Notes: generated by a model not told the origin, from the letters alone. DNA of 62,308 bases, filler included, from Collodictyon triciliatum (GCA_043381765.1; 17 parts of 17 records of this genome joined end to end with filler, not necessarily neighbours in it); one strand, 5' to 3'; counted from the whole stretch's first letter, positions 44,674-44,792 are shown. Numbers and translations are program-made.

Positions 44674-44792
44674 CTAGAAGGAGTGTACCAATCGAAAGAT
44701 TGGTAAACCAGATGCGCTAGTATCCAAGGTCTCACCACTTTTTTTACATGGTTATGTAGTGGTGAAGGCTGCCAGGAAAGACCCGACAGCCT
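44674..44792 (-). ncRNA. Candidate Fanzor omegaRNA scaffold, copy 2
   Basis: AGGCTGTCGGG-TCTTT-CCTGGCAGCCT forms an 11-bp stem with G-U pairs on the ORF strand. It is followed by TCACCACT/AGTGGTGA and the terminal hairpin. Confidence 0.7.

Follow-up and report, generated by a model that had tools for sequence, protein, structure and literature searches.

The locus analysed here raises a simple question: what is the compact, structured stretch of about 120 nt that closes a broken gene in the DNA of Collodictyon triciliatum? Our results suggest that it is probably what is left of an omegaRNA (guide-RNA scaffold) gene that belonged to a Fanzor1 transposable element, and most likely something to be expected in a known family rather than a system of a new kind. 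A preliminary description of this DNA had already taken the region for a candidate omegaRNA scaffold. Its position, the boundary of the element, the fold and the covariation found in viral relatives speak for this reading; against it stand the absence of compensatory pairs among the copies at hand, the non-significant score of a model built from the viral relatives, and the fact that the protein partners are dead.

The window, that is, the whole stretch of 62,308 nt that was analysed, is a chain of contigs of about 3.57 kb, which rules out one continuous chromosome stretch. The contigs are of near-equal length, with microsatellites at most of their ends, and are joined by 16 spacers of the form N44-TTAATTAATTAA-N44 with a period of about 3,672 nt (for example at 3575-3674, 7249-7348 and 43965-44064), in which TTAATTAATTAA, set between the paired runs of 44 N, is a six-frame stop spacer. 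Contigs that adjoin across one of these spacers are not genomic neighbours. Further gaps in the window consist of 510 N (12139-12648) and 14 N (35338-35351). The region under study is present in three copies, A, B and C, one on each of three separate contigs of about 3.6 kb, as delimited by the spacer map:

33055-36624: contig A, which holds copy A; element on the minus strand
44065-47632: contig B, which holds copy B, the tail under study; element on the minus strand
55073-58643: contig C, which holds copy C; element on the plus strand

Beside each tail stands a gene in ruins, and copies B and C have in common a further stretch upstream of it:

33269..35224, minus strand: copy A, Fanzor1 pseudogene of a 5'-truncated element, longest open piece 211 aa
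44791..46671, minus strand: copy B, Fanzor1 pseudogene with stops and frameshifts; PF07282 at E 0.01, below the cut-off
56947..58465, plus strand: copy C, Fanzor1 pseudogene without the equivalent of 44911-45296 (386 nt)
46672..47563 (copy B, minus strand) and 55667-56946 (copy C): upstream shared region, about 0.9 kb common to B and C

Judged by their sequence, the three copies are decayed Fanzor1 elements. The 211-aa piece of copy A is 59% identical to P0001, an intact relative of 648 aa, and P0001 matched the solved Fanzor1 proteins GtFz1, PpFz1 and SpuFz1 with E values of 2.1e-28, 2.7e-24 and 3.7e-23. The solved proteins compared come from Guillardia, Parasitella and Spizellomyces; the structures matched by P0001 were 9cer, 9cf0 and 8gkh, of which 9cer, that of GtFz1, is the closest, and the piece of copy A itself matched 8gkh with E 3.6e-5. 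The motifs of the family are still recognisable in copy B (RuvC-I ..LDAGK.., RuvC-II ..NEFRTSK.., CCNC...CKEC and KDFNSAINI), and across the copies ..DAGK.., ..NEFRTSK.., CCNC..CKEC and (R/K)DFNSA were found, that is, the RuvC D...E...D residues and a C4 zinc finger. The last D reads H in copy A, and the 386 nt missing from copy C correspond to the RuvC-II/zinc-finger region. The three copies are fossils and not a working system: stops and frameshifts occur in every frame of A, B and C, an intact nuclease partner was found in the window for none of the three, and pairs of the stems described below have been lost. Copy A ceases to resemble B and C upstream of an (ACAAT)n run, and in copy B the 5' end of the element is not reached because contig B starts in an (AAT)n run. 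The shared 0.9 kb or so upstream of the Fanzor start codon showed no evident coding capacity. Two microsatellite expansions inside the elements were also seen, one a T/C-rich run of about 430 nt in the upstream region of copy C (55790-56230), and the other an A-run of about 100 nt in the ORF of copy A (34590-34700), which is translated as a poly-K stretch.

In 3/3 copies the tail is on the same strand as the Fanzor ORF and follows or overlaps its 3' end; the tails have the following parts (bit scores are those of R1, a model built from the three copies):

33147..33268, minus strand: copy A tail, ending in CCAG+T, with the Fanzor frame open throughout the tail; 136.4 bits
44673..44792, minus strand: copy B tail, putative omegaRNA scaffold remnant that runs from the TAG/CAG codon up to CTAG+T, where the element ends; 137.3 bits
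44766..44792, minus strand: hairpin (i) of copy B, AGGCTGTCGGG-TCTTT-CCTGGCAGCCT, 11 bp, loop TCTTT
44732..44765, minus strand: hairpin (ii) of copy B, TCACCACT...AGTGGTGA, 8-bp stem
44707..44730, minus strand: pairing (iii), ACCT/AGGT, 4 bp, weak
44686..44705, minus strand: hairpin (iv), ACCAATC-TTTC-GATTGGT in copy B, terminal tetraloop hairpin
44673..44685, minus strand: 9-nt linker, CTAG (44677-44674) and T, the element right end
58464..58583, plus strand: copy C tail, in which stems (i) and (ii) each hold a single mismatch; 138 bits

The preliminary description had stated that four structural parts are kept, and all four hairpins are indeed present in A, B and C, with standard pairs in 93.3% of the 90 pair cells of the three-copy alignment against 30-52% when the partners were slid by 1-3 columns. 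Hairpin (ii) directly adjoins hairpin (i); its interior is variable, and an A-run lies just 5' of its 3' arm. The tetraloop of hairpin (iv) is TTTC in B and GAAA in A and C. The description was also right that stem (i) closes fully only through G-U pairs on the ORF-sense strand, since this stem holds 2-3 adjacent G-U pairs (U.G, (C/U)-G and G.U, adjacent in all three copies) which the opposite strand cannot form: there the wobbles turn into A.C and the stem opens. As for the C/T difference said to keep the pairing, the pair itself (8-20) joins C to G in B and U to G in the other two copies, but the change from C to U turns GTC into GTT, both Val in the Fanzor frame, and is also a CpG-to-TpG transition, and therefore says little as evidence for the preservation of a pair. 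The single mismatches reported for copy C are A.C at pairs 3-25 of (i) and 33-59 of (ii). The reported alteration of part (iii) in copy B is likewise real and consists of one pair (69-86) lost through changes at 44710 and 44712; in related contigs, T at 44710 and G at 44712 (plus strand) are found in nearly all of the depth and restore CACCAGG. The motif of hairpin (i) occurs 3 times in the window and in 0 of 100 shuffles, occurrences that are copies of one repeat and therefore not independent events. Rfam gave no match in the tail. The sole match in 44400-45100, Histone3 (the histone 3' stem-loop), lies outside it at 44832-44877 on the minus strand, with 14.8 bits against a gathering score of 34 and E 0.77; this match, inside the C-terminal coding part of Fanzor, is most likely due to chance.

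The similarity from copy to copy continues to CTAGT (CCAGT in A), after which the flanks differ, as seen both by alignment and by blastn. Related contigs of four public runs (9, 80, 136 and 17 pieces, 80-99% alike) were compared with 44600-45300; their depth was zero left of 44672 in 4/4 runs, one piece ended at 44673, and two loose ends of related contigs also read ...CTAGT. Since the copies diverge and the depth of related contigs drops to zero at this point, the right end of the element is CTAG(+T), which coincides with the start coordinate given in the preliminary description (44674). The end reads CTAG in B and C and CCAG in A, and is followed by T in all three. Sequence that diverges directly past CTAGT/CCAGT is what is found at the end of a guide scaffold, and the flank is here a putative guide. 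The downstream flank of copy B and the upstream region of copy C showed no homology to each other. The loose ends of related contigs hint at differing arms of hairpin (iv), as seen on the 3' side only. A (CA)n/(GT)n microsatellite begins about 40 nt past the element end in copies A and C (33055-33146; 58584-58643), and the flank of copy B has none; these microsatellites may reflect an insertion preference or just breakpoints of the assembler's contigs.

The other limit of the region had been placed at the stop codon, and this did not hold. Where copy B has TAG (44793-44791), copy A, P0001 and most of the depth of runs X3 and X6 have CAG; in the two most copy-rich runs the CAG variant (G at 44793, plus strand) accounts for 153.7 of 161.1 and 158.8 of 246.9 of the depth. 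P0001 reads ..KKQAVG.. and goes on for 17 more codons into hairpin (i). Because TAG is specific to copy B and CAG is found elsewhere, the tail takes in the last part of the ancestral ORF instead of following on from it. The point at which the ORF ends differs among B, C, A and P0001.

Relatives of P0001 in giant viruses show the same kind of 3' region with covarying helices. Homologues of P0001 numbered 244 at E <= 0.001 among 7,037 candidates, and the best 120 of the 244 are 37-46% identical to it and 560-660 aa long. When viral contigs were searched with an alignment built on 21 of these homologues, 24 loci came up, most of them in bins labelled as giant virus, and in the giant-virus loci the 3' ends are conserved well past the protein match. 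This region opens with a hairpin, X, that lies over the last codons; helix O, a conserved block and the small hairpin Y come next, and it closes with a terminal block ending in ...GGTGTAAAA, beyond which the loci diverge. In L239-L259, a strongly conserved terminal block ..AATCGGCGTTTTAAATGTCCAAAGGTGTAAAA was observed about 60-200 nt past the Fanzor stop codon, with O and Y upstream of it. The arms of helix O vary by lineage and yet are complementary (UGACC/GGUCA, UUGACUAC/GUAGUCAA, UACUAUC/GGUAGUA, GUCAGU/ACUGAC and ACCA/UGGU), an A-rich run precedes the 3' arm, and the arms of hairpin Y change likewise. R2, a model of helices O and Y built from 16 of the 24 viral loci, matched 18 of the 24 at E <= 2e-7. 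The alignment used in the covariation test (14 distinct rows) was fitted to R2 and is hence biased towards it; in this alignment, 74.4% of the cells pair, compared with 61.4 +/- 2.1% in shuffles (0/500) and 20-42% with slid partners, and 7 of the 12 pairs show compensatory change. Cells changed on both sides numbered 24, against 10.2 +/- 2.6 in shuffles (0/500 reach 24), and the covariation score was 0.371, a value reached by 0/500 shuffles, which gave 0.179, while slid controls gave no more than 0.115. In L250 (..RPTEFIRG*), L252 (..RPPAFCK*) and L248 (..RPEPFCRS*) the stop codon of the ORF comes shortly behind X, and in L239 the ORF reads through O and Y (..GLTFTPTGEKVGQSVDFAVGKATNP*). Since the viral blocks are conserved whether coding or non-coding, the constraint is on the nucleic acid and not on the peptide. 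The same RNA region thus stands inside or outside the reading frame in these viral relatives, which would make them a clear example of sequence shared between an ORF and a guide RNA. Folded by itself, the 190-nt 3' region of L250 has a z of -4.02, and 105 nt of L239 have a z of -4.06, with a hairpin of 12 bp set directly against a bipartite helix that holds an A-rich run, and then a small hairpin.

The layout of the window tail corresponds to that of L239, with the 11-bp hairpin (i) abutting (ii) and its A-run, and then (iii) and (iv) in the same order; hairpin (i) is the positional counterpart of viral hairpin X. In both the tail and the giant-virus loci L239-L259, the last codons are covered by a long hairpin, and next come a helix with an A-run, small hairpins, and a terminal hairpin, followed by a linker of about 12 nt in the viruses. 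They differ in that the viral 3' region is longer (about 190 nt in L250) and ends in ...GGTGTAAAA, whereas the window copies end in ...CTAGT. MAFFT aligned the A-run and the 3' arm of (ii) with the viral helix O. If TTC ACC .. GGT GAG of the tail is set against viral CTG ACC .. GGT CAA, one pair is flipped from C-G to G-C, a register that is a reading of ours and not a result of a tool. With default filters, R2 gave no match on the window; with the filters off, hairpin (ii) was its second-best match on contig B (8.3 bits, E = 1.5, 6/6 pairs). In the opposite direction, R1 gave a single weak match on the 24 viral loci, at helix O of L249 (9.8 bits, E 0.96). Because R2 is not significant on the window, the homology of the RNA is argued here from position, layout and the adjoining protein homology. 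Searches for more copies gave little: a 14-mer had chance matches only in the viral contigs, none of 36 pattern matches was confirmed when P0001 was compared with the viral contigs, and none of 98 when the C-terminal protein alignment was compared with metagenome contigs. An 18-mer was found at no fewer than 118 loci in metagenome contigs, and R1 matched 0 of the 118 listed at E <= 1; two 18-mers were found at 4 loci in viral contigs, of which R1 matched 0.

By analogy with characterised Fanzor and TnpB systems, we hypothesize for the active ancestor a sense-strand transcript that would run from the last Fanzor codons to the right end of the element. This RNA would fold into the long hairpin (i) abutting helix (ii) with its A-rich internal loop, followed by the weak pairing (iii), the terminal hairpin (iv) and a linker of about 13 nt, and would extend some 15-20 nt into the flanking DNA, the flank serving as guide. 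The nuclease would then bind the scaffold and cut DNA that matches the guide. Previous studies of the family are consistent with such a role. In this family, structured 3' guide RNAs are the rule (PMC10432273, PMC11423790, PMC10530073). The omegaRNA gene of GtFz1 is described as overlapping the last 17 codons of the ORF (PMC10432273), and the RNA as being 150 nt long with four stem-loops, of which the first is the conserved one (PMC11423790). The window tail resembles it in the overlap with the ORF end and in having four hairpins in 120 nt plus a presumed guide, where GtFz1 has four stem-loops in about 150 nt with the guide. The first stem-loop of GtFz1 is reported to be 7 bp, in contrast to the 11 bp of hairpin (i); the two are likened by the published description only. 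In SpuFz1, according to PMC10432273, the scaffold also lies between the ORF end and the right end of the element and the guide is the variable 14-15 nt beyond, but that scaffold has 75 nt with two stems and no overlap with the ORF, and the element has inverted repeats, of which none involving the 3' end was seen in contig C. The fRNA of Chlamydomonas CrFNuc-1, which we can liken to the tail by description only, is described as a conserved structured 3' RNA of a Fanzor1 in a non-autonomous rolling-circle element (PMC10530073, PMC3627910); unlike the window copies, that element is reported to have Helitron2 ends with asymmetric terminal inverted repeats and two hairpins, and its protein gene many introns.

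That Fanzor1 elements are common to giant viruses and host genomes has already been described (bioRxiv 10.1101/2024.09.03.611062). Our literature search covered a limited set of main texts, and within it we found nothing on the RNA of the P0001-like clade. A likely guide-RNA scaffold is here assigned to a Fanzor1 clade without prior study in the literature searched, a clade made up of P0001-like proteins from eukaryotic DNA together with hundreds of relatives on giant-virus contigs. With dead copies, the window itself is of small practical value; its layout, together with CTAG + T as the end point, would still indicate about 140 nt for co-expression with an intact relative.

The terminal part of the tail also resembles the end of a known class of transposon, and this resemblance can be read in two ways. 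The element may have been a Helitron1-type transposon whose 3' termination hairpin was at the same time the last stem-loop of the Fanzor guide RNA, with the guide read from the host DNA directly past CTAG, a combination that we hold to be unlikely. If true, it would mean that RNA-guided homing was coupled to Helitron1 transposition through a single shared sequence, and that one Fanzor1 clade passes from giant viruses to a eukaryotic genome or back while its right end differs between the two. We regard it as unlikely that hairpin (iv), the 9 nt, CTAG and the host T had a termination signal on ssDNA as their sole function, the element being a rolling-circle transposon that had captured a Fanzor gene; more generally, a Helitron role could stand instead of, or beside, the RNA role. 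According to PMC3627910, the defining marks of Helitron1 elements are 5'-TC, CTRR-3' and a single subterminal hairpin on the 3' side; Fanzor1 genes are also known to lie within Helitrons, as PMC13565253 likewise describes. The order hairpin, 9 nt, CTAG and T is found in B and C (CCAG and T in A), that is, CTRR followed by a T and with one subterminal hairpin 9 nt upstream, where that of Helitron1 is placed about 10-12 nt upstream (PMC3627910), and the two loose ends that read ...CTAGT agree with it. In contig C, no terminal inverted repeat was seen that takes in the 3' end. Copy A is truncated on its 5' side and its 3' end is intact, as reported for Chlamydomonas Fanzor1-Helitron elements (PMC3627910), and the strand that carries the G-T wobbles is the one expected to carry 5'-TC...CTRR-3'. 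Against these points, the 5' end (TC after A) is found in none of the three contigs and the match covers the 3' half of the definition only; no Rep/helicase was seen among the 15 long window ORFs scanned; and hairpin (iv) is short and AT-rich. A Helitron end accounts for hairpin (iv) and CTAG only: the Helitron1 terminus has no counterpart to hairpins (i)-(iii), which it leaves unexplained. The viral relatives share the layout of terminal hairpin, about 12 nt and end with the different sequence ...GGTGTAAAA, and this layout is therefore a feature of the Fanzor 3' region whatever the transposon. The Helitron-like end nevertheless gives a lead on which transposon carries the P0001-like clade.

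The guide-RNA scaffold has also to be weighed against the absence of any function, the similarity being that of three copies of one repeat and the fold of copy B a local GC-rich accident, which we consider quite unlikely. All copies are pseudogenes, about 85% identical pairwise across the whole element (84-85%), and this is the background for the 91 of 123 invariant columns in the three-copy alignment of the tail; as selection is not expected in decayed copies of one repeat, conservation among them is not itself evidence of function. On the three window copies, RNAalifold and pair counts gave 0 compensatory pairs, which decayed copies would hardly be expected to show. The GC content of the tail (0.46-0.52) is above that of most of the element, and the folds of copies A and C, taken as 117-nt cuts, are not significant against shuffles (z -1.39 and -0.53); in copy C the antisense strand folds more stably than the sense strand (-33.9 vs -27.3 kcal/mol). 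The tail of copy B, on the other side, folds with -44.3 kcal/mol and z -5.47, an energy that 0 of 200 composition-preserving shuffles reach, and hairpins (i) and (ii) alone have a z of -4.70. Nothing similar was found in 12 other 120-nt windows of the same contig and strand, which gave z from -1.94 to +2.07 and -11 to -24 kcal/mol, so that the tail of copy B is the only strongly structured stretch nearby. The restoration, in related contigs, of the pairs of (iii) lost in copy B and the covariation of the same layout in the viral relatives also argue against an accident.

Two further pairings were rejected. One of them, ACTAG/CTAGT, was proposed by RNAalifold and is a palindrome effect that is broken in copy A. 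The other is a pseudoknot between GGTCTT and GAGACC that the preliminary description had put forward; the complementarity does exist, with 6 pairs including one G-U in A and B and 5/6 in C, where both sides have changed and the pairing is not restored, but it overlaps stems (i), (ii) and (iii), and chance alone should, on a rough estimate, give about one such 6-nt match.

That the tail is nothing but a C-terminal extension of the Fanzor protein, with incidental hairpins, is very improbable: the Fanzor frame of copy A is open across the whole tail, P0001 continues for 17 codons past ..QAVG, and P0006 and L239 encode a conserved ..GLTFT..EKVGQSVDFTVGKAT.. that by eye is like ..AAFTTT..EKSGETLEISAPG.. 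of copy A, but comparison of the tail peptide with the family profile gave a probability of 0.15%, aligned elsewhere and with no similarity at the C-terminus, tail indels of 3, 2 and 1 nt leave the copies without a shared frame, B, C, A and P0001 have no common end point of the ORF, and the homologous blocks of L248, L250 and L252 are still conserved after the stop codon, which refutes this reading in the relatives.

On other contigs of the window, fragments of eukaryotic genes were observed, namely a proteasomal ATPase OB domain (6005-6733, minus strand, Pfam E 2.6e-7), an NHL repeat (27015-27485, plus strand, Pfam E 3e-8) and a PfkB kinase (60980-61549, plus strand, Pfam E 2.4e-7).
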